A stretch of DNA of 24,000 nt from Chroococcus sp. FPU101 (GCF_017312365.1 NZ_BLJI01000001.1:461417-485416), one strand, 5' to 3'; counted from the first letter of the stretch, positions 9,232 through 21,421 are shown. A program made the numbers and translations. The notes: generated by a model not told the origin, from the letters alone.

Positions 9232-9471
9232 CTACTTATTAAGTTTTTTTAATCTTCTTTTGTGTTGTTTTTGTCGCCAAGCACGCTGTATCAAAATTAA
9301 GGCAGTTGTCGTCAAAGTGCTGACAATTTCCTTTATTCCTCCCATCCGCTTTAAATTCTGCCAGCTAAAGACGAGCCATTGCCAAGATCTTTTAATCTCT
9401 CTTTTTAAAGTTTTCTTTTCTTTAGGGGGATAGGATACTGTAAAAGGTGAGTTAGGTTCTGGGTTAATCAT
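9232..9471 (-). CDS. Doubtful small basic ORF (79 aa from the internal ATG)
   Basis: This is the only ORF filling the 370 nt gap between the ExbD-like gene and the hydroxylase gene. It has a very basic C-terminus (RAWRQKQHKRRLKKLNK). There is no SD and no recognisable family. The longer 9232..9660 form overlaps the ExbD-like gene and is unlikely. Confidence 0.25.
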   Translation of the reverse strand: MINPEPNSPFTVSYPPKEKKTLKREIKRSWQWLVFSWQNLKRMGGIKEIVSTLTTTALILIQRAWRQKQHKRRLKKLNK

Positions 9472-9580
9472 TGAACTTATACTGTTTTTGACACTCCTGT
9501 ATATAATACTATTTACCCTAAAAGTCATTAAAAATAAAGAGGTTAGTTCAATTAGTATTGACCCATGCTGTGCTAAAAGT

Positions 9581-10279
9581 CTATTGTACGCCGATCGCAC
9601 GTCCACCAGAGCCAAAAACGATCGGTGTTTGTAGGGTATGGGGTTCCCAACCGACATCAAAACCGTTATCCCAAGCTTGTTTTCTGGCTACTCGAAATGT
9701 CGCAAAACTATCGGGACGCACAATAAAAGCTAAATAGTCTGTTTTCGGATTAAGTGTTTTTAGTAAAGTCGCAAATTTAGCATCTTTTTGAGACAATTCT
9801 TTAATCGTTTCCCCAACATTAGCCGATTTAGGTTCATATAAAATTGCATCACCTCCTACAAAGCGAACTCGATAAAAATCTGTTTCTGTTTGAAAAGATT
9901 GTAGTTGTTTCATCATTGTTATTCTACATCTTTCATATTCTTGGATTTTAAAAAGATAATCTTGGTAGGAGTATTCATCAAGTGTTGAAGGATCAGGGGG
10001 TTCTTGACAAGTTGGTAAAGTATTTAATAATTCATTTAATTGTCGATCAACTATTTTGTCATCAATATACGACACGCGATTATTGCGTATTTCAAAAAAA
10101 TAAGGTTGTTTTTTACTGGCTTTAACTAAAGGAGTCCGTATAATAGAACCAGTTTGAACCGTAATTAAAGTAATAAATAAACTGACAAACATCAAAACAC
10201 CAACAGTATTTGTTAAAATATCTAAAAATGAATCTAGATTCTGTGTTGGTAGATTATTTTGTCTTCGTCTTCTTCGCAT
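9581..10279 (-). CDS. ExbD/TolR-like protein, paralogue 2 (232 aa, retains the TM Asp)
   Basis: N-terminal MRRRRR, then a TM segment SFLDILTNTVGVLMFVSLF. This resembles E. coli ExbD TPFIDVMLVLLIIF with the Asp conserved. The C-terminal YLAFIVRPDSFATFRVARKQAWDNGFDVGWEP parallels the neighbouring paralogue. Its start overlaps the upstream gene by 26 nt. Confidence 0.75.
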   Translation of the reverse strand: MRRRRRQNNLPTQNLDSFLDILTNTVGVLMFVSLFITLITVQTGSIIRTPLVKASKKQPYFFEIRNNRVSYIDDKIVDRQLNELLNTLPTCQEPPDPSTLDEYSYQDYLFKIQEYERCRITMMKQLQSFQTETDFYRVRFVGGDAILYEPKSANVGETIKELSQKDAKFATLLKTLNPKTDYLAFIVRPDSFATFRVARKQAWDNGFDVGWEPHTLQTPIVFGSGGRAIGVQ

Positions 10280-10736
10280 CTGTTTCTGTCTCTATTTTAA
10301 TTTTCCAATTTTGATCAATCGGTTCGTAACCGATATCAATTCCTTGTTTTTCGATTAATCCTCTAACTTGCTGAAATGTTTCTATCCCATCGGGACGCAC
10401 AGCGACAATTAAATACTCTTTATCTTTATTTTGTTTGAGAGTCAAAAGCAATTCTAAGAGAGTATCAGAAAGTTTTAAGTATTGTTGAGGGATAAATTCT
10501 TCTTGAGGATAAATAATAATTCCATCTTGACGACATTCAATATATCTAGGTTTTTTAGACGCATTTTTACCTGTTTCAGATTTAGCAATAATTGTAACTG
10601 ATTGCTGTTCGCCAAATATTTGAGTCGTTAAAACAATAATCAATAAAATAAGTGTGCCGATGGTACAAGCTAGAACAGAAAGAAAGGGAAATAATTCGAT
10701 TTCTGTAGCTGGAGGAGAAAAAGAACGCCGCCGCAT
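10254..10736 (-). CDS. ExbD/TolR-like protein, paralogue 1 (160 aa, TM Asp replaced by Ser)
   Basis: N-terminal MRRRS, then a TM segment FPFLSVLACTIGTLILLIIVL. The periplasmic block YLIVAVRPDGIETFQQVRGLIEKQGIDIGYEP is ExbD-like. It starts 5 nt after the MotA/ExbB-like stop. Confidence 0.75.
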   Translation of the reverse strand: MRRRSFSPPATEIELFPFLSVLACTIGTLILLIIVLTTQIFGEQQSVTIIAKSETGKNASKKPRYIECRQDGIIIYPQEEFIPQQYLKLSDTLLELLLTLKQNKDKEYLIVAVRPDGIETFQQVRGLIEKQGIDIGYEPIDQNWKIKIETETDAKKTKTK

Positions 10737-10741
10737 AAAGA

Positions 10742-12151
10742 TTATTCATCATCCATAAAACTAACAATTCTTGGTTTACTCAATTTATCTAAACTAGGTT
10801 TGAGTTGAGTTAAACTTTCTTTAAGATCAGTTAAAAGTTTTTCGGATTCTAAAACTTCTATCAAAGAATGGTTTAAATTTAGTAATCCTTCTTTGATTTG
10901 ATTGATTTCTGTCAGTTTTAGGGTCGCTTGTTCTAATGAATTTAGTCGATTTTCTAATAAATTTGAAGTACTTTCTAAGTTTTGACTAATTTGAGCAGCT
11001 TGTGCTAAAAGATTTTGAACCGTTTCTATATTACTAGAGCGAATCAGTTCGATAATATTTTCTAAATTAGCCAGTAAAGTAACCTGATTTTTTTGTTGTT
11101 CGATTAAAGATTCGGAAAATTGATTTCTATCTTGTAAATTATTTTGATTAAGTTGTTCGATTTGTGTCACCCAATTAGAACTTAAATTTTGTAGCTTATC
11201 TAATTCTATGACAAAACGCTGTGTGAATTGGCTAACCGCTTGTTGAGCGTATTGATGAGCAGGTTCAATCAATGATTCAGGAGAGGGAAAATATTCTTTT
11301 AAAGCTTCGGAAACGGTTTGATTAATCGTCGTCGTATCTAATAAAGTTTCCTGTTTTTCTCCAAAATTTCCTAATAATCGATCATGAATAAAAATATCTA
11401 TTGCCAATAATAAGCGAGATTCATAACGTTCAACTAAAACCAAAGGAATCATCACTAAAATACTTAATAACAAAGCTAAAAGAGTCGTATCAAAAGCAAT
11501 AGCTAAACCCGTGGTTACTGTGCCAATTCCTTTTTTAATTTGTTCAATATCACCCGCTTTGTCTAATAATCCTGAAAAACCATTAACAGCAGCACTAATC
11601 CCAAAAACTGTACCAATAAATCCTAAGAGTGGAATCGCCCAAACTAAAATTCTTGGTAAAGCATAAGAACTTTCGGAAGAACTTAGATAAAAGGACGAAT
11701 CATCTAACGCAATTTCTGAAGCAGCTTTCCGACTATTGGACTGAAGATAAGCGGCAATGACTCGACTACAACGAGTGGCTAATAAACTGTTAGAACGAGA
11801 TAAGTTTTTTTGTAAAATAGATAAATCTCTATTGGATGGATCATTAAAAAGGTTGGGAATTTCGGGAACTAAATTTTGTTTAAACAAAGATAGTTCTTTG
11901 CTCACCTTAAGCCATTTAGTTATCGTCAACGTAACCACGATCGCACTAAACCAAATTGCTAAATATTGCGTCCAGCCTCTCTCATATAATAAAATACCTA
12001 AATAGGAACCCCTAAAAGGTAAAACTAGACCATAAATTACTAGACTCAGAATTAAAGCGATCACCAAAGTTAAGCCAAAATTAATATCTAGTTTTTTCCG
12101 CTCATGATCACTCGCCACCCAGGGAGATAAACCCTCATTTCTTCGCTGCAT
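10742..12151 (-). CDS. MotA/TolQ/ExbB-family proton-channel protein with a long C-terminal coiled-coil tail
   Basis: AIPLLGFIGTVFGISAAVNGF and GLAIAFDTTLLALLLSILVMIPLV resemble the ExbB/TolQ channel helices. Two hydrophobic segments precede a ~90 aa loop. The last ~190 aa are L/Q/N/E/S-rich heptad-like sequence. The ATG at 12151 (MQRRNE...) is preferred. The ORF track's start at 12163 is a TTG. Confidence 0.85.
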   Translation of the reverse strand: MQRRNEGLSPWVASDHERKKLDINFGLTLVIALILSLVIYGLVLPFRGSYLGILLYERGWTQYLAIWFSAIVVTLTITKWLKVSKELSLFKQNLVPEIPNLFNDPSNRDLSILQKNLSRSNSLLATRCSRVIAAYLQSNSRKAASEIALDDSSFYLSSSESSYALPRILVWAIPLLGFIGTVFGISAAVNGFSGLLDKAGDIEQIKKGIGTVTTGLAIAFDTTLLALLLSILVMIPLVLVERYESRLLLAIDIFIHDRLLGNFGEKQETLLDTTTINQTVSEALKEYFPSPESLIEPAHQYAQQAVSQFTQRFVIELDKLQNLSSNWVTQIEQLNQNNLQDRNQFSESLIEQQKNQVTLLANLENIIELIRSSNIETVQNLLAQAAQISQNLESTSNLLENRLNSLEQATLKLTEINQIKEGLLNLNHSLIEVLESEKLLTDLKESLTQLKPSLDKLSKPRIVSFMDDE

Positions 12152-12180
12152 TTGATTGTTCAAAATATAAACTAAACAAA

Positions 12181-12223
12181 TAATACTAGAAAACCCGCAT
12201 CAATCTGTTATATCATTGCGGGT
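12181..12223 (-). terminator. Putative intrinsic terminator or attenuator after the 69 aa ORF
   Basis: Stem ACCCGCA (12193-12199) pairs with TGCGGGT (12217-12223) around a 17 nt loop. On the minus strand it is followed by TTTCTAGTATTATTT. It lies between the 69 aa ORF and the MotA/ExbB-like gene. Confidence 0.4.
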
Positions 12224-12250: not shown

Positions 12251-12460
12251 TTAATAACTATCGTCTTTTAGAACTGTTTTAGAGGATAATAATTGATTAG
12301 CGGTCACCAGAGAATCAGCAACGGCTGTACGATCCGTTAAGGCAACAGTCGGAGTTGCTAGAATTTCTTGTGCTTCTTGACGATAAATAGCCCCAGTGAC
12401 TAAATCAACTTGATCAATTGTCTCTAGGTTGGTACACACTTTTGCTACAGATTCAGGCAC
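12251..12460 (-). CDS. Small hypothetical protein (69 aa)
   Basis: GTG start with GGAGGG about 8 nt upstream, which is a good SD. A hairpin lies downstream. No family recognised. Confidence 0.5.
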   Translation of the reverse strand: MPESVAKVCTNLETIDQVDLVTGAIYRQEAQEILATPTVALTDRTAVADSLVTANQLLSSKTVLKDDSY

Positions 12461-12702: not shown

Positions 12703-15279
12703 ATGTCTAGCAACAACATTAATTCTTCCCCACCCTTCAAACAAGAAAATTCATCGATTCTAATGATTAACTGGGACAAACCGCCCTTTTGTTGGCTAAG
12801 TCCAGAACAACAACTACAATTAAATCAAAAAGCACAAGTTTATCACTACAAATTAGGCGAAAAAATTTGGGGTTCTGAGGAGACAGACGATCGCTTTACA
12901 GGATATTTTCTAATTATCGCAGGTAAAGTTCGCCTTAGACAAGAAGACTCAACTCAGTCTCTAGCAACCTTAGATGTAGAAAGTTGGTTTGGTGATTGGT
13001 TAAAAACAGAGATCCCCATTAAAGCAGTTGCAGCGAGTAAAACCGTCGAAGTTATTCGCTGGGATAATACGCTGTGGAACTCAGTTACCACCGTCGCTAT
13101 CCAACAGTTTTGGACTCAGCAGCAAACCCGTTTAATCACTCACACCGTTGAAACCTCAAAAACTATATCAGGTTATCCATTTATTTCAAGTACAAATACA
13201 GGTGCAGCGTGTTTAACCATGGCTGCCTATTATCTCCAACTTCCTGCACAATTAGAATGGATACAACGGCGTTTACGAGGGCAAAAACCCCAACAAATCA
13301 TTGATGCTGGCGAAAAAATCGGGCTACAACTGAGAAAGCTACAACTATCTTGGATGGATCTAAAACAGATACAATTTCCTGCGTTAATCCACTGGCAAAA
13401 CGAATCATGGGTTGTTGTCTATGGCATTAGAGGCAATCGTTTAATCATTAGTAATCCGCTTAATCCTGATTCTAAGAACGAAAGTATCCCTAAAACCCTT
13501 GTCGAAGCATCATGGGATGGCAAATTATGGCAAATTGAACTCATTCAAAAGCAACAACGATTTAATTTAACTTGGTTTCTCCCTGCGGTTTGGCAATATC
13601 GAAATCTACTTTTTGAAGTTCTGTTAGCCTCATTTACCCTACAAATTTTGGGTTTAGGAACACCGATTATCACTCAAGTCATCATCGATAAGGTCATGGT
13701 ACAACAGAGTATCCCCACTCTCGATGTTATGGCACTTGCTTTACTCGGTGTTGCCGTTTTTGAAGCTATTTTAGGGATTCTACGTTTATTTATTTTCACT
13801 CATACGGCGCGTCGTCTCGATTTACGATTATCTTCTCAGCTATTTCGTCATCTAATGCGTCTTCCTTTAGCTTACTTTGAAAATCGTCGAGTAGGTGATA
13901 CAGTAGCCAGAGTTCAAGAATTAGAAAATATACGAGAATTCCTTACTGGAACAGCAATGACAGTCATTCTCGATAGCATTTTTGCGGGTGTTTACCTGGC
14001 AATTATGTTTTATTACAATACTAAATTAACCTGGATTGCCTTAGCTGTTTTACCCTTATTTGCGCTACTCACTTTATCCGCCACCCCGATTTTACGATAT
14101 TGGTTAAACGAAACATTTAATCGTAGTGCCGACAGTCAATCTTTTTTAGTTGAAACAATTACTGGAATTCAATCTCTTAAAGGTCATGCTGCCGAAAATA
14201 GCACGAGAGAACGCTGGGAGGGATTATTTGCCCGTTTCATTCGTACAGGTTTTAAAGCCTCTACAACATCGAATATTAGTAATAACATTGGGGGATTCCT
14301 AACCAATTTTTCTAATCTTTTAATTCTTTGGTTTGGGGCGCAATTAGTCATCGAGCAAAAGTTTACAGTAGGTCAATTAGTCGCTTTCCAAATGCTATCA
14401 GGACGAGTCACAGGGCCATTATTAAGATTAGTGCAATTGTGGCAAAATCTACAACAGGTTTTACTCTCAGTGGATCGAATTGGTGATATTCTTAATGTTC
14501 CTCCCGAAGCTGAAGCAGGAACAGGATTAGTTTTACCACCCCTACAAGGTGAAGTCATTTTTGATCAGGTAATTTTTCGCTATCAACCTGATCAAGAACC
14601 GATATTACGAGGTATTTCTTTTACGGCTAAACCTGGAATGTTTGTCGGAATTGTGGGTAGAAGTGGCTCAGGAAAAAGCACTTTATCGAAATTAATTCAA
14701 CGATTATACCCGATCGAAACAGGACGAATTTTAATTGATAGTTTTGACTTAAATAGTGTTGACTTAGGCTCTTTACGACAGCAAATTAGTGTAGTTTTAC
14801 AAGAAGATTATTTATTTAATGGAACGATTTTAGAAAATATTTCTTTGAATAATCCAGATCTGACCGATGAGCAAATTGTTCAAGCAGCTAAACTAGCAGT
14901 CGCTCATGATTTTATCTGTGATTTACCCTATGGATATGATACAAAAGTCGGTGAAAGAGGTGTCGCTTTATCAGGAGGACAACGACAAAGAATTACACTA
15001 GCACGTCTGTTTATTTCACAAGCACCTATCCTAATTTTAGATGAAGCAACAACGGGATTAGATGCAGAAACCGAGCAACAAGTTTTACAAAATTTACAAA
15101 ACTTTTCACAAAATCGCACCGTTTTTATGATTGCCCATCGCTTTGAACCCTTACAAAAAGCAGATTCAGTTTTAGTCTTAGAGAAAGGGATTTTAGTAGA
15201 ACAAGGAACTCACTTAGAATTATTACAAAAACGCGGTTTATATTGGTCACTCTATCAACGTCAGCAAAGTAGTTTTTAG
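12703..15279 (+). CDS. ABC exporter with four parts: degenerate cNMP-binding-like domain, C39-like domain lacking catalytic residues, 6-TM ABC membrane domain, ATPase
   Basis: ATPase motifs seen: Walker A GRSGSGKST, signature LSGGQRQR, Walker B ILILDEAT, H-loop IAHR. C39-like blocks: PFISSTNTGAACLTMAAYY and ALIHWQNESWVVVYGIRGNRLIISNP. These align by eye to ComA/CvaB peptidase domains. The N-terminal beta-barrel-like segment (FGDWL...VAASKTVEVIRW) is cNMP-like. Confidence 0.9.
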   Translation: MSSNNINSSPPFKQENSSILMINWDKPPFCWLSPEQQLQLNQKAQVYHYKLGEKIWGSEETDDRFTGYFLIIAGKVRLRQEDSTQSLATLDVESWFGDWLKTEIPIKAVAASKTVEVIRWDNTLWNSVTTVAIQQFWTQQQTRLITHTVETSKTISGYPFISSTNTGAACLTMAAYYLQLPAQLEWIQRRLRGQKPQQIIDAGEKIGLQLRKLQLSWMDLKQIQFPALIHWQNESWVVVYGIRGNRLIISNPLNPDSKNESIPKTLVEASWDGKLWQIELIQKQQRFNLTWFLPAVWQYRNLLFEVLLASFTLQILGLGTPIITQVIIDKVMVQQSIPTLDVMALALLGVAVFEAILGILRLFIFTHTARRLDLRLSSQLFRHLMRLPLAYFENRRVGDTVARVQELENIREFLTGTAMTVILDSIFAGVYLAIMFYYNTKLTWIALAVLPLFALLTLSATPILRYWLNETFNRSADSQSFLVETITGIQSLKGHAAENSTRERWEGLFARFIRTGFKASTTSNISNNIGGFLTNFSNLLILWFGAQLVIEQKFTVGQLVAFQMLSGRVTGPLLRLVQLWQNLQQVLLSVDRIGDILNVPPEAEAGTGLVLPPLQGEVIFDQVIFRYQPDQEPILRGISFTAKPGMFVGIVGRSGSGKSTLSKLIQRLYPIETGRILIDSFDLNSVDLGSLRQQISVVLQEDYLFNGTILENISLNNPDLTDEQIVQAAKLAVAHDFICDLPYGYDTKVGERGVALSGGQRQRITLARLFISQAPILILDEATTGLDAETEQQVLQNLQNFSQNRTVFMIAHRFEPLQKADSVLVLEKGILVEQGTHLELLQKRGLYWSLYQRQQSSF

Positions 15280-15703: not shown

Positions 15704-18037
15704 TCATAGAGCAAAATTAGCGTTTATCACTTGCTGAACTTTTTCAATTTGTTTAGGTGCTTCTATTTCTGTAAACAGTTGTATGGCTATTTTAAAAGAT
15801 TTTTTGTAATTTTCTCCTAATTGCTGTTGTGTTATTCCTAACTGATAATAGCTTTCTGCTAAATCACATTTCGCGCCAATTTCTTCTAAAAGATTAATCG
15901 CTTCTAACTGTTTAGTTATAGCTAAATCTAAATTTCTTTGTCTTCTATTAATTTCTGCTAAACTGATTAAAGCTTTGGCTCTAACTTGCGGATAATGACT
16001 CTTTTTAGAAAACGCGATCGCACTTTCTAAAAGTTTAATTGCTTTTTCCATTTCCCCCAAATTTACATAGGTTTGTCCAAGAATTTGCATAAAATAAGCA
16101 AAACTTCCAGTTTCTTTAAATAAATCTTTATTCAAATAAATATTATCTGCAAGTAATAAAGCTTCTTGTTCACCTCCTAAATAAGATGTTACTAATGCTA
16201 AACAAATCGATGCTTTTTGCGCCCAACGAAAATGAGGAGTATTTTCAGATAAATTAATAACTTTATTCAAAAAAGAAATAGATTTTTTAAGTTCCCACAA
16301 ATCAATATGATACAAACCAATACTGAGTAATGAATCTATTTCTAGCATTTTTAGATAATGAACTATCCGTTGGTTTTCTGTTGATTCTTGAAGACTTTTA
16401 ACGGTAATCTTAATCGTTTCTTCTTGACACAATATAGCACTTTTTATATTACCTGTAATCCAATATAAATCACCTAAAATATTATAAAGCTCACTACGAT
16501 GGGAAGGATTTTTGACCTGCTCAATAATCTGACTAATTGCTGTGAGAACAGGTTGCAGTAAACCCATCCTATAGAAAATACTACCAAGGGGTAAAAATTG
16601 TCCCCATTGATTTTTCTTAGGTTGTAGAATAACCTGACTCGCTCGCTCAAAATCATTAATTTCAAGATAATGATATAATGCTTCCCAAGCCGTTATACCA
16701 TCTTGTAATGTCAAAATTTCTCCAATACTTTCTGTCCAAAATTTAGCCGCTTTAATGTTTGTTTGCTGCCATTCTTGAGTACAACGTAAGCGAGTAATTG
16801 CTTCACAACGTATAACTGGATGTAACCAGTATTCCCCTTGATCATACTCAATTAAAGAGCGATGATATAAAGACTGAATCACTCGTTTACGTTGATTATT
16901 ATCGACATCCCAAAGTAAAGCTAATAAAGCTTTTCGTGAAAGCTTAGGAATATCTTGATAACGATAACACCCCAAACGACACAACAATTTATAAGCATTA
17001 AGCTCAAGAATTTTGATGCGCTCAAATTGACTAGCAACTAAGTTTTTTAAATCGATTTCACTTAAAGGATCATCTTGAATCTCTTGCCAATATTCCCGCA
17101 TATTTCCCGCAAAATCCGTTTTAATCACTCCACACAAAATTCTCATTGCTTTAGGGTTTCCTCCATAGGTTTTGTGCATTGCTTGTAATGTAGCAAAATC
17201 AATCTTTATAGAAGAAGCATTAAAATAATTTTCCCATGTTGGTAAATCTAACCCAGTTAAACGATAATGATAAAGATTTAAAGCAGGTTCAAAAATACGA
17301 TCGCGGCTAGTAATTAATGTGACAGATTGAACTTTTGAGGCTAACACTCGCAATAATTCTACATAGCCACTGTGAACAGGAATAAACATACCTTTAGCAT
17401 CTAGGGCAGGTTCCAAATTATCGATTATGATGCCAATCCGTCGTGTTTCTAGATGACGTTTTAACCGTCCCAAAGTAATACCAAACTCTCGTCCTGGTTC
17501 TTCTTGTAAGTCTTTTTTTAGCCATTCTTCGATCACATTTTCAACAGAAGTAATATTCTGAGTTTCCTTAGCCATTAAAAGTTCTAAGACCAACTCAAAC
17601 TCCTGTTGTTGAAAATAGTGTTGCGCTAAAGTTGTTTTTCCGATTCCTCCTTCTCCTTGAATAACAATGACTTTATTTCCTTGTTGAACAAGAGTACACA
17701 GGTCTGTAATATCACTGTTTCGCCCAACAAAATTTAGATTTGTCGCTAAAAATATCGATAAATTTTCTTCAGATTGAGTGAGCAACTTTCGTTCTAATAT
17801 GGAGCGAACATTACTTTTAGTGACCTTTTCTCCTAAAGCGATCGATAACAATTTCCATAACAGCGAAGCGACATCCTTAACGTATCCTTCAGTGCAGTTA
17901 TACTCATTGGCAATCTCAAGATACTTTTTACCTTGCCAAACTTGCCGTAAAATGGTGCATTGTAAATCGCTGAAATGTTTGCCAGTCTGAGTAAAAATTA
18001 GGGTATCTGCTAATATTAATGCTGCTTCTACATTCAT
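15704..18037 (-). CDS. STAND NTPase with N-terminal HTH-like module, NB-ARC-type ATPase and C-terminal TPR array
   Basis: Motifs seen: Walker A GEGGIGKTTLA (nt 17630-17656); Walker B RIGIIIDNLE; LITSRD (NB-ARC sensor-like); GGNPKAMRIL (GxP motif). Repeated TPR-like helices fill the last ~330 aa. The N-terminal 85 aa (LQCTILRQVWQGKKYLEIANEYNCTEGYVKDVASLLWKLLS) looks like a LuxR/sigma-r4-type HTH, seen at N-termini of many cyanobacterial multidomain proteins. Confidence 0.85.
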   Translation of the reverse strand: MNVEAALILADTLIFTQTGKHFSDLQCTILRQVWQGKKYLEIANEYNCTEGYVKDVASLLWKLLSIALGEKVTKSNVRSILERKLLTQSEENLSIFLATNLNFVGRNSDITDLCTLVQQGNKVIVIQGEGGIGKTTLAQHYFQQQEFELVLELLMAKETQNITSVENVIEEWLKKDLQEEPGREFGITLGRLKRHLETRRIGIIIDNLEPALDAKGMFIPVHSGYVELLRVLASKVQSVTLITSRDRIFEPALNLYHYRLTGLDLPTWENYFNASSIKIDFATLQAMHKTYGGNPKAMRILCGVIKTDFAGNMREYWQEIQDDPLSEIDLKNLVASQFERIKILELNAYKLLCRLGCYRYQDIPKLSRKALLALLWDVDNNQRKRVIQSLYHRSLIEYDQGEYWLHPVIRCEAITRLRCTQEWQQTNIKAAKFWTESIGEILTLQDGITAWEALYHYLEINDFERASQVILQPKKNQWGQFLPLGSIFYRMGLLQPVLTAISQIIEQVKNPSHRSELYNILGDLYWITGNIKSAILCQEETIKITVKSLQESTENQRIVHYLKMLEIDSLLSIGLYHIDLWELKKSISFLNKVINLSENTPHFRWAQKASICLALVTSYLGGEQEALLLADNIYLNKDLFKETGSFAYFMQILGQTYVNLGEMEKAIKLLESAIAFSKKSHYPQVRAKALISLAEINRRQRNLDLAITKQLEAINLLEEIGAKCDLAESYYQLGITQQQLGENYKKSFKIAIQLFTEIEAPKQIEKVQQVINANFAL
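16014..16021. repeat. HIP1 palindrome GCGATCGC
   Basis: Exact octamer. At least six further 7/8 variants are scattered through the window, for example at 8453, 9591, 17300, 17844, 20144 and 20347. This is a cyanobacterial genome signature. Confidence 0.8.
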
Positions 18038-18219: not shown

Positions 18220-18537
18220 ATGCTGGCACATCGTATCGAAACGACTATTAATCAGGACAAAACCCTAACCTTAGAAAATTTACCCTTTCATTCTGGTGAA
18301 CAGGTTGAGGTAATTATCTTATCTCGTCCACGGGAAGAGTTTTTTAGCACGTCACGATGGTGGAAACCTGTAACGTCATTGAGCGTTCTTGTTCAAGTCG
18401 ATCCTGAAACATTAGCTTGGTTTCAAGCGCACGGAGAAGACTATGAAAAGAGGATGGCTACTGCATTACGGATTTATGCAGAGGCACACAAGATATCGTT
18501 AAGTTCAGTAGAAAGCGACACAACAAAATTTACTTGA
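18220..18537 (+). CDS. Chimeric orphan antitoxin-like ORF: small AbrB/SpoVT-like antitoxin N-terminus joined to a BrnA-type C-terminus
   Basis: The N-terminal IETTINQDKTLTLENLPFHSGEQVEVIIL is typical of short cyanobacterial antitoxins. The C-terminal VQVDPETLAWFQAHGEDYEKRMATALRIYAEAHK matches the remembered BrnA pattern (D.D.L.WFK..G.GYQTRIN..LR.Y). No toxin ORF follows it. Confidence 0.55.
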   Translation: MLAHRIETTINQDKTLTLENLPFHSGEQVEVIILSRPREEFFSTSRWWKPVTSLSVLVQVDPETLAWFQAHGEDYEKRMATALRIYAEAHKISLSSVESDTTKFT

Positions 18538-20386: not shown

Positions 20387-21421
20387 TTATTTTTCTTTGG
20401 CTAAAGCATTATCAAAATAAACGGTTGCTGCTTCTTCTTTACCCCGCATTGAAAAAACCGCTACTTTGCCAGATTTAAAAGATTGATCCCGAAAACTTCC
20501 CACCCTTTTTCCATTAATCACACCAAAAATGAGATTGTTTTTGCAGACAATTCTTAAATTATTTTTATGATTTCCTGCCTTGATCGCTCCATCTTTTTGC
20601 CATCCCACTTTAGGGAACCAACCGTCTTTTGTGTGTTTACCTAACACAAAATTTTCTTTTCCATCAATTAATAAATAATAAAAATTTTCTGATGATTTGC
20701 CGTTGACTCTAGCGGTGATTCCATAGGCATTATTATCTCCACCCTTTATTTGGGTTACATCTGTGGCAAAATCAACATCTGTAAAATTCTTTTTTGTCCA
20801 AATTGAAGCACCAAAATGATAAGGAATCGGCTGTCTTTGAAATAAACTTCCTTTTCTAACAATTGAGCCATCGGTTAAAGACCAATTTTTAGAAGATTTA
20901 AAGCTTTCTTGTAAAACAACTTTTTTAAAATCACTGGTATTAAATTGTTGCATCCATAACCAATAGCCAAAAACTCCCGATATCCCTAGAATAATTGGAA
21001 TAATTGGATTTATAAGTAAATTAAATTTTTTCTTTTGTGATGAACGAGATTTAGGCGATGATTTTTGATACGGCGAATATGAATTAGAGGGACTGGAGTA
21101 GAGAGGTAGAGACGGTTGTGAGGTCGTTTTTTGATGTTTAATAACAGGAGGTACAATTAAAGAACTTTCAAGACTTGGTGATGATTTTTTACCCGTTGAT
21201 AGATTAGTTTTAGGTAATTTTTCTGCTGATGAATGAAGAGAAGATGATAAAAATTGAGTTTTGCTAGAACTCGGTGAATTTTTTCCTAAATCACTATTCA
21301 AGGATTTAGAATTGCCACGACGAATTATGCTAAATTGACGAGATTGACAACTTGGACATTGTCCAGGTTTAATTGATAAAGTGATTTCATTTCCACATTT
21401 TCGACACTTATAAATAGGCAT
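20387..21421 (-). CDS. Membrane protein: N-terminal Zn-ribbon, S/P-rich linker, one TM helix, C-terminal jelly-roll (DUF1080/LamG-like) domain
   Basis: CRKCGN...CPSC forms a CxxC-x17-CxxC ribbon. A ~110 aa Ser/Pro/Lys-rich low-complexity stretch follows, then the TM helix PIIPIILGISGVFGYWLW. The C-terminal pattern is W.L.DG....G.L...W....F.D.DF..DV....G..N.YGI..R...FYYLLIDG...F.LGK. Confidence 0.7.
   Translation of the reverse strand: MPIYKCRKCGNEITLSIKPGQCPSCQSRQFSIIRRGNSKSLNSDLGKNSPSSSKTQFLSSSLHSSAEKLPKTNLSTGKKSSPSLESSLIVPPVIKHQKTTSQPSLPLYSSPSNSYSPYQKSSPKSRSSQKKKFNLLINPIIPIILGISGVFGYWLWMQQFNTSDFKKVVLQESFKSSKNWSLTDGSIVRKGSLFQRQPIPYHFGASIWTKKNFTDVDFATDVTQIKGGDNNAYGITARVNGKSSENFYYLLIDGKENFVLGKHTKDGWFPKVGWQKDGAIKAGNHKNNLRIVCKNNLIFGVINGKRVGSFRDQSFKSGKVAVFSMRGKEEAATVYFDNALAKEK

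Follow-up and report, generated by a model that had tools for sequence, protein, structure and literature searches.

Three adjoining genes of the cyanobacterium Chroococcus sp. FPU101 raise the question of which ion-driven motor they encode and what this motor could energise. The genes, here called A, B and C, lie in a 24,000-nucleotide (nt) stretch of the genome (NZ_BLJI01000001.1, 461417-485416), hereafter the window. The first-pass annotation had described them as a stator-like module combining one MotA/ExbB-type channel protein with two paralogous ExbD/TolR-like proteins, and having no visible output partner. The main result of our analysis is an asymmetry between the two small proteins: C has a protonatable aspartate in its transmembrane (TM) helix, and B has an invariant serine. 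We place the cassette among the 5:2 motors, as a variant in which the stator would be a heterodimer with a single Asp, the ring subunit has four TM helices and a tail, and no output gene is linked. We give an even chance to the reading that the operon encodes a proton-driven motor of the 5:2 type with a single-Asp B-C stator, probably a housekeeping energiser of the envelope.

Organization of the operon

The window is cyanobacterial and also encodes Ycf4. Genes A, B and C follow one another head to tail on its minus strand, to which all the cassette positions given below refer. Gene A (10742-12163) encodes a channel protein of the MotA/ExbB/TolQ/ZorA superfamily, 473 amino acids (aa) long when read from a TTG start. 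Gene B (10254-10736) encodes a divergent, single-pass ExbD/TolR-like protein of 160 aa, and gene C (9581-10279) its 232-aa paralogue. A is separated from B by 5 nt (10737-10741), B and C overlap by 26 nt (10254-10279), and the three genes are translationally coupled; these coordinates agree with the three-gene unit proposed on first reading. The database protein of Chroococcus sp. FPU101 that is 100% identical to A counts 469 aa. Therefore, A probably begins at the ATG at 12149-12151, which gives a protein of this length.

At an expectation value (E) of 1e-3 or lower, the database contains 690 homologues of A, 542 of B and 443 of C. These numbers, together with the recurrence of the A-B-C order in other genomes, indicate that A, B and C are real genes and not chance open reading frames (ORFs). 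Two other ORFs, at 9232-9660 and 10582-10767, were rejected as by-products overlapping the real genes.

Asp/Ser asymmetry of B and C

The TM helix of B (10623-10694) is devoid of any acidic residue, and its residue 20 (10677-10679) is a serine in 120 out of 120 homologues. Residue 20 of C (10220-10222) is an aspartate, again in all 120 homologues. It belongs to a TM motif of 19 consecutive residues, QNLDSFLDILTNTVGVLMF (10187-10243), which is invariant over 36 sequences and also includes D16 (10232-10234). Ser20 of B stands at the position of ExbD D25 and TolR D23, and D20 of C is aligned with TolR D23, both equivalences being obtained through weak alignments. The D-x-L-T element of the C motif presumably resembles the MotB type. 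The cassette has one protonatable TM Asp partner, C, and an invariant Ser on the other, B. This asymmetry is new, and we found no description of an asymmetric stator, of the A tail or of the wider family in the literature.

The paralogy of B and C was assayed by aligning the two family profiles with hhalign. The match (98%, E 7.5e-14) covered the TM helix and the C-terminal domain. C differs from B by an insertion of about 80 residues holding two invariant cysteines (C91 and C118), and the C family ends in GVQ. The periplasmic domain of C (9584-10117) was modelled with a predicted local distance difference test score (pLDDT) above 90.

Kinship with ExbD and TolR is more distant. The best curated match of B was the TolR model TIGR02801 (E 0.029, residues 11-115), at 15 bits for a cut-off of 127.3. 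The Pfam ExbD family (PF02472) was matched by 13 of 36 B homologues, in a colinear manner over the TM helix and the greater part of the periplasmic domain (profile positions 3-109); the highest score was 18.7 bits, under the cut-off of 25.4. None of 36 C family members matched Pfam ExbD, and neither B nor C of the window gave any match in Pfam or PADLOC. When the B and C profiles were compared by hhalign with single E. coli ExbD and TolR sequences, scores were weak and limited to the TM region, plus its flank for ExbD. The entry of the B TM helix carries an E-I-x-L-x-P-x-L motif, as in ExbD/TolR. C is linked to ExbD/TolR solely via B, and wider relatives of C display TM motifs such as SLVPLADMLTN that grade into the ExbD/TolR type. 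Because of the colinear sub-threshold matches of B and these bridging motifs of C, we accept both proteins as divergent members of the ExbD/TolR lineage. Their homology to this group thus appears credible from the sequences, at scores that fall short of formal family membership. The two paralogous ExbD/TolR-like genes of the first-pass annotation are recovered on these terms, with a likeness that lies below the curated thresholds.

Topology and fold of A

Protein A belongs to the MotA/TolQ/ExbB proton channel superfamily. It matched Pfam PF01618 (MotA_ExbB) at 25.3 bits, above the gathering cut-off of 22.9, over residues 158-241 (11441-11692), a segment spanning TM3, the periplasmic loop and TM4. 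Both motifs quoted earlier for its channel helices, PLLGFIGTVFGI and AFDTTLLAL, are found in A.

Structure predictions were made for the monomers of A and C. In the AlphaFold2 model of A (38 homologues, mean pLDDT 77), TM helices at residues 29-50 and 64-95 precede the cytoplasmic domain, which is helical (112-166) and is followed by TM helices at 168-201 and 206-266. A C-terminal helix then runs unbroken from residue 295 to 459, over about 165 residues. As modelled, A has the four-TM layout of MotA and ZorA and not the three-TM layout of ExbB and TolQ. TM1 (residues 29-50, 12014-12079) is a model helix with a hydropathy maximum of 2.68. TM2 (residues 64-88, 11900-11974) lies in the model helix 64-95, with pLDDT values of 87-96; its assignment rests on the model because its Kyte-Doolittle hydropathy is under the 1.6 threshold. 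TM3 and TM4 are at 11585-11662 and 11435-11512, respectively. The MotA-like layout with a long tail suggested on first reading is therefore reproduced by the model, with two helices before the loop, two after it and the C-terminal helix.

The model of A was compared with the Protein Data Bank (PDB) using Foldseek. Chains of TolQ, ZorA, MotA, ExbB and PomA were retrieved with a probability of about 1, which, with the Pfam score, sustains the assignment of A as a MotA/ExbB-type protein. The best target-normalised template-modelling scores (0.5-0.55) were obtained for TolQ, ZorA and ExbB chains, those of MotA and PomA being lower, and no single motor family was clearly best. In a profile alignment with E. 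coli ExbB and TolQ, T185 of A (in GTVFGI) falls on the threonine of GTVWGI. In the TolQ alignment, T227 falls on the threonine of TolQ TM3, and the invariant D225, in TM4, is one turn away from where TolQ has its glutamate.

The cytoplasmic tail (residues 295-459, 10787-11281) forms one continuous helix in the model. Its hydrophobic residues recur every 3.45-3.6 residues, with a peak about 8 to 10 times the mean, a periodicity like that of coiled coils. The C-terminal motif KLSKPRIVSFMDDE (10745-10786) lies within the family motif LKPxLxxLxKPRxI. Among 38 sequences, this motif shows no change at P456, P464 and R465 and hardly any at L454, L458 and K463. The length of the tail differs by lineage. 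Crocosphaera-type proteins have 389-394 aa, most of the tail being deleted, and Gloeothece proteins reach 584-627 aa with tandem repeats. In the 627-aa protein of Gloeothece citriformis PCC 7424 (locus L003, 10001-11884), the coiled-coil region contains units of about 50 residues repeated in tandem; locus L011 (10001-11179) likewise illustrates the plasticity of the tail.

Conservation and variants of the cassette

Metagenome and genome loci were dereplicated to 55 lineages, about 42 of which have A or B adjoining C. The A-B-C order is kept in most of these cassette-bearing, mostly cyanobacterial lineages: the ten annotated genome loci all have it, as do most metagenome loci of sufficient length for judging. 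Hosts include Chroococcales, Pleurocapsales, Oscillatoriales-type genera, Spirulina, Chroococcidiopsis, Nostocales, Microcystis, Cyanobacterium and Rubidibacter, and the cassette was also found on one forest-soil metagenome contig. Pairwise identities track taxonomy within the families, plasmid copies being about equidistant from all others, and no relatives were found in viral-contig and phage-genome collections. The C profile retrieved 2383 representative clusters at E of 1e-3 or below, and 713 at 1e-10 or below, from 1.84 billion representatives; no Pfam, NCBIfam or PADLOC model covers this C-type family. As a self-contained unit, the cassette belongs to an old, mostly cyanobacterial family.

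Several variants were observed. Two loci (L033 and L080) have the order A-B-B-C, with two tandem B genes. In another (L011), B and C are separated by an inserted 226-aa gene of opposite orientation. Moreover, in at least 20 of 149 representative clusters a B-type domain is followed by a C-type domain in one secreted protein lacking a TM helix. Such fusions (Rosetta-stone evidence) suggest that the periplasmic domains of B and C work as a pair. The fusion proteins (P0387, P0399-P0401, P0411, P0413, P0414, P0423, P0471 and others) have a signal peptide, and some carry a LolA-like annotation. In the two fusion loci examined (L096 and L097), the fusion gene stands alone amid housekeeping genes.

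Comparison with known motors

The cassette falls short of the family criteria of ExbBD/TolQR, of MotAB and of ZorAB alike, while sharing features with each of them. Like ExbB-ExbD and TolQ-TolR, it has the MotA_ExbB domain, with the GTVxGI element and the TM4 threonine kept in A, an aspartate in C and a B protein colinear with the ExbD/TolR models. However, A has four TM helices instead of three, plus a tail, and no NCBIfam ExbB/TolQ model matched it at E of 1 or below. B and C score under the thresholds, the proposed inner heterodimer would have one Asp, and no TonB, TolA or receptor gene is present in cis.

The resemblance to ZorAB lies in the ring subunit, which in both combines four TM helices with a long helical tail, C-terminal and cytoplasmic, in the presence of ZorA chains (8qyd and 8vvn) among the top fold matches of A, and in the defence islands in which some relatives of the cassette reside. 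To our knowledge, ZorA is the only motor subunit known to carry a long cytoplasmic tail. In contrast to ZorA, A scores far under the family cut-offs and its tail is much shorter (the matched ZorA models have 383-1063 positions, as compared with 473 aa for A). ZorB forms a homodimer, whereas B and C are proposed to form a TolR/ExbD-like heterodimer, which is without the OmpA-type peptidoglycan-binding domain. The cassette also lacks ZorC, ZorD and ZorE, none of which is encoded in the window.

MotAB and PomAB share with the cassette the four-TM channel subunit, and MotA and PomA chains are among the fold matches, but the cassette has no MotB-type OmpA-like domain; as far as we know, cyanobacteria have no flagella. 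Finally, the Myxococcus AglR-AglQ-AglS motor and the exbB-exbD1-exbD2 sets also combine one channel gene with two TolR/ExbD-type genes. This likeness is one of composition only, the cassette being without a Glt-type or TonB partner, and we know of no member of these pairs in which a serine replaces the TM aspartate.

Three of the points described here were absent from the first-pass annotation: the Asp/Ser asymmetry, the ZorA models as those closest to A and the relatives in defence islands.

Gene neighbourhood

A partner gene was searched for in the window and in the other lineages. Among window ORFs of at least 100 aa, no TonB-like, TonB-dependent receptor, OmpA-like or Zor effector gene was found. 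Clustering 680 neighbouring ORFs and scanning the 146 nearest revealed no recurrent partner, each Pfam family occurring at most three times among these 146. The largest neighbour clusters, of histidine kinases and of FGE-sulfatase/kinase/WD40 proteins, were rejected as partners since they are promiscuous domain families. The absence of a visible output partner noted on first reading thus extends from the window to the neighbours in about 42 other lineages, none of which recurs.

Most of the neighbours are ordinary. Synteny with Aphanothece hegewaldii (L001) covers the cassette and its upstream region and stops near the 3' end of C (9573-9581); downstream of the cassette, the two organisms have different genes. 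In the Gloeothece/Crocosphaera clade, a histidine kinase gene lies 40-214 nt upstream of the cassette. Housekeeping genes such as ruvA, tsaD and those of NDH-type subunits are frequent neighbours, with ruvA downstream of the cassette in three lineages. In Spirulina, the cassette is directly preceded by MltA and PG_binding_1 genes, of which the PG_binding_1 gene has the orientation of the cassette and lies at a distance of 26 nt. In Thermosynechococcus, whose genomes measure about 2.6 Mb, an orphan C gene (L098, 9001-9660) has a fixed position: it is flanked by hisF and, on its other side, by genes for a transpeptidase penicillin-binding protein (PBP) and an M23 peptidase. An AMIN-amidase gene is found about 8.5 kb upstream of it.

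Downstream of the cassette, the window encodes an Asp/Asn beta-hydroxylase-family protein, a DinB-family protein and an RPE65-type oxygenase. Upstream, and divergent from the operon, is an 858-aa ABC exporter (12703-15279, plus strand) that contains a C39 peptidase domain and is much extended at its N-terminus. Aphanothece (L001) and a 90% relative (L016) also have this transporter next to the cassette. Next comes a 777-aa STAND NTPase with NB-ARC/nSTAND3 and TPR repeats (15704-18037, minus strand), which adjoins a BrnA-antitoxin-like ORF (18220-18537, plus strand). This pair has the flavour of a conflict system, its sole PADLOC match being a weak one (PDC-S73, 8e-5). A protein with a 3-keto-disaccharide-hydrolase domain is encoded at 20387-21421.

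A 69-aa ORF (12251-12460, minus strand) lies just upstream of A on the same strand and leaves scant promoter space for it. Its conservation is limited to the two closest relatives (amino-acid identities of 97% and 82%), and it was therefore rejected as a fourth component. It is followed by a terminator-like hairpin (12193-12223, minus strand; ACCCGCA...TGCGGGT, TTTTCT, -13.3 kcal/mol). Because it is located between the motor operon and the C39-peptidase ABC exporter, it may encode an exported leader-type peptide.

Proposed motor

By homology to the solved 5:2 motors, five A subunits would form a rotating ring in the cytoplasmic membrane, and a heterodimer of the single-pass proteins B and C would stand inside this ring in place of the usual homodimer, giving a 5:1:1 assembly. 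Protons would pass via D20 of C against the two channel-lining threonines (T185 and T227) and D225 of A, and their flow would turn the A ring relative to the B-C pair. The paired periplasmic alpha/beta domains of B and C would anchor the pair in the envelope. On the cytoplasmic side, the five A tails could associate into a bundle of up to about 25 nm (165 residues of 0.15 nm each), which would be the only visible cytoplasmic output. That the B and C domains work together is suggested by the translational coupling, by the conserved A-B-C order and by the B-C fusions. The data themselves establish the homologies, the predicted topology, the Asp/Ser asymmetry, the conserved cassette and the lack of any linked partner; stoichiometry, rotation, B-C pairing and role are inferred.

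The most likely role is that of a Ton/Tol-type housekeeping energiser of the envelope, using partners encoded elsewhere. We favour iron or outer-membrane transport if the link to Synechocystis discussed below holds, and otherwise wall-linked work. A housekeeping role is plausible because of the synteny with Aphanothece, the ruvA, tsaD and NDH neighbours, and the PBP/M23/hisF and MltA/PG_binding_1 contexts.

Several observations weigh against this proposal. The structure models behind its stoichiometry and B-C pairing are those of monomers. Both B and C remain under the curated ExbD/TolR thresholds; their profiles gave only chance matches with PDB sequences, without ExbD or TolR, and a Foldseek search of the PDB with the C model retrieved neither ExbD/TolR nor any significant neighbour. 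Orphan C genes exist, so the three genes are not always together: besides the Thermosynechococcus gene (L098), those of loci L075-L078 and L060-L066 have an intact NLDSFLD Asp motif and no adjoining A or B. No gene for TonB, TolA or a TonB-dependent receptor was found near the cassette in any locus examined, including the ten annotated ones. No Fur box with three mismatches or fewer was matched in the window, the consensus used being that of E. coli and not a cyanobacterial matrix. Finally, beyond the generic Pfam domain A matches ZorA anti-phage models only, and a minority of the copies are located in plasmid defence islands.

These last two points lead to a first alternative, in which the cassette would be a Zorya-like system of minimal composition, used in anti-phage defence or conflict. 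The B-C module would sense envelope damage during infection and the motor would spin or open. The output might be signalling by the A tail to effectors that are encoded elsewhere or that neighbouring systems provide, or else a proton leak with growth arrest. The sole motor match of A in NCBIfam was indeed NF033915 (ZorA_2), at 18.4 bits for a cut-off of 100, and its PADLOC matches were ZorA models only, with a best E of 5e-4. For the A homologue on a plasmid of Anabaena cylindrica, matches reached 1.7e-8 with ZorA1 and 1e-5 with the tail region of ZorA3. In contrast, neither B nor C had a PADLOC match, and no OmpA-like peptidoglycan-binding domain of the ZorB kind is present.

The genomic contexts are likewise divided. 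On plasmid pANACY.03 of Anabaena cylindrica PCC 7122 (L013, 3005-14544), the cassette follows a type III-B CRISPR module (Cas10/Cmr2, Cmr3, Cmr4 and Cmr6) and Csx1, a CARF-HEPN protein, on the same strand and at 79-128 nt. Two related loci (L008 and L047) have the same arrangement, and deoxynucleoside kinase and viperin-family genes lie downstream in loci of this type. On plasmid p1 of Microcystis aeruginosa NIES-2481 (L012, 7035-15346), a CBASS cyclase, a 2TM/SLATT effector and a 1094-aa HKD-Snf2 helicase with weak ZorD-like and DrmD-like matches precede the cassette. A DUF559 gene is found 68 nt downstream of it, and NUDIX, HNH and GIY-YIG genes also come after it. A WCX-domain regulator is encoded upstream of the cassette in Microcystis-type contigs (L049 and L052), and an AAA_15/DUF3696 ATPase gene adjoins it on a soil contig. 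Large multidomain proteins, with FGE-sulfatase and Ser/Thr kinase, CHAT, trypsin or WD40 domains, are neighbours in several metagenome loci (L069, L085, L088 and L095). However, clear and independent defence contexts number about three for about 42 lineages, as a raw count. Most neighbours are ordinary and no effector recurs among lineages. Moreover, identities that track taxonomy and the lack of relatives in phage genomes and viral contigs speak against a defence function. We prefer a housekeeping role to Zorya-like defence because ordinary contexts dominate, identities track taxonomy and the orphan C gene is fixed in the small Thermosynechococcus genomes. The Zorya-like system is retained, as an unlikely explanation, in view of the copies in plasmid defence islands and of the ZorA-like architecture.

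A second alternative is that the cassette is simply the third TonB-energising ExbB-ExbD set, equivalent to exbB-exbD3-exbD4 of Synechocystis, the tail and the heterodimer being decorations of the lineage. In Synechocystis PCC 6803, sll0477, sll0478 and sll0479 consist of an ExbB-like gene and two genes for hypothetical proteins, which form one transcription unit induced 6.7-fold under iron limitation (PMC4195498). This operon has a Fur box and its genes were named exbB, exbD3 and exbD4 (PMC8634477). It belongs to a background of three exbB-exbD operons, which hampers the analysis of mutants (PMC7020235). Its composition of one channel gene plus two smaller genes, in a unicellular cyanobacterium, is that of the cassette, the two having been compared by gene descriptions only. 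We consider it about as probable as a coin toss, or slightly more so, that the cassette is orthologous to sll0477-0479. The three Synechocystis sets are reportedly redundant in the uptake of inorganic iron, and a triple mutant is said not to have segregated. Under this second alternative, the cassette would share that redundancy with the canonical sets and would already count as characterised.

Annotation labels at JGI, where homologues of A are called ExbB/TolQ and those of B ExbD, also agree with a TonB-energising set. Nevertheless, no Synechocystis protein was present among the best 120 matches of the A, B or C searches, or in the cluster look-ups, which gave Cyanobacterium, Microcystis, Rubidibacter and Thermosynechococcus. 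The four TM helices and the tail of A differ from the three-TM ExbB, the NCBIfam ExbB/TolQ models do not match A, and B is without the Asp that is essential in ExbD. The iron-induced operon of Synechocystis has a Fur box, whereas the Chroococcus window has none of the E. coli type. Neither the asymmetric stator nor the tail is described for sll0477-0479 in the papers that we found on that operon. The first-pass annotation had named a consistent linkage of orthologues to tonB or TonB-dependent receptor genes as one mark of a known TonB-energising variant; the loci examined show no such linkage, and some of the copies are plasmid-borne. A plain third ExbB-ExbD set is improbable in our opinion.

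Two further possibilities appear weaker. The cassette could act as a stand-alone, Zorya-like envelope sentinel with no dedicated effector, which on Nostocales plasmids would be the membrane arm of the type III-B CRISPR/Csx1 module; the asymmetric stator and the tail of tunable length would then turn an envelope insult into a proton leak or, through the tail, into activation of neighbouring immune modules. We regard this as quite doubtful. A peptidoglycan- or division-linked motor of the Tol type, in which the B and C domains would engage the wall for envelope remodelling as a substitute for Tol-Pal, is very unlikely: the Spirulina and Thermosynechococcus contexts, the TolQ chains among the best folds of A and TolR as the best curated match of B point to it, but such contexts are two in number, no TolA, TolB or Pal-like gene is linked, TolQ has no counterpart of the A tail, and the C domain has no TolR fold match.

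Significance

The cassette possibly corresponds to an operon of Synechocystis on which genetic work exists but no structural description. If sll0477-0479 belong to the same family, the published genetics of iron uptake bear on the cassette, and that operon would need to be reinterpreted as something beyond a plain ExbBD copy. If confirmed, the asymmetry would be of high value for motor specialists; the value would be lower if the cassette were merely a redundant copy of ExbBD.

In rotation models of MotAB, ExbBD, TolQR and ZorAB, two equivalent aspartates of a homodimer alternate as the ring steps. A family with Asp on C and Ser on B is therefore a direct natural test of whether two aspartates are needed. 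This family is large and unnamed, with 2383 representative clusters for the C-type subunit alone. Long motor tails are so far known to us from Zorya alone, where they signal to nucleases. Since the tail of A has no linked effector, such a tail may be a more general output device.

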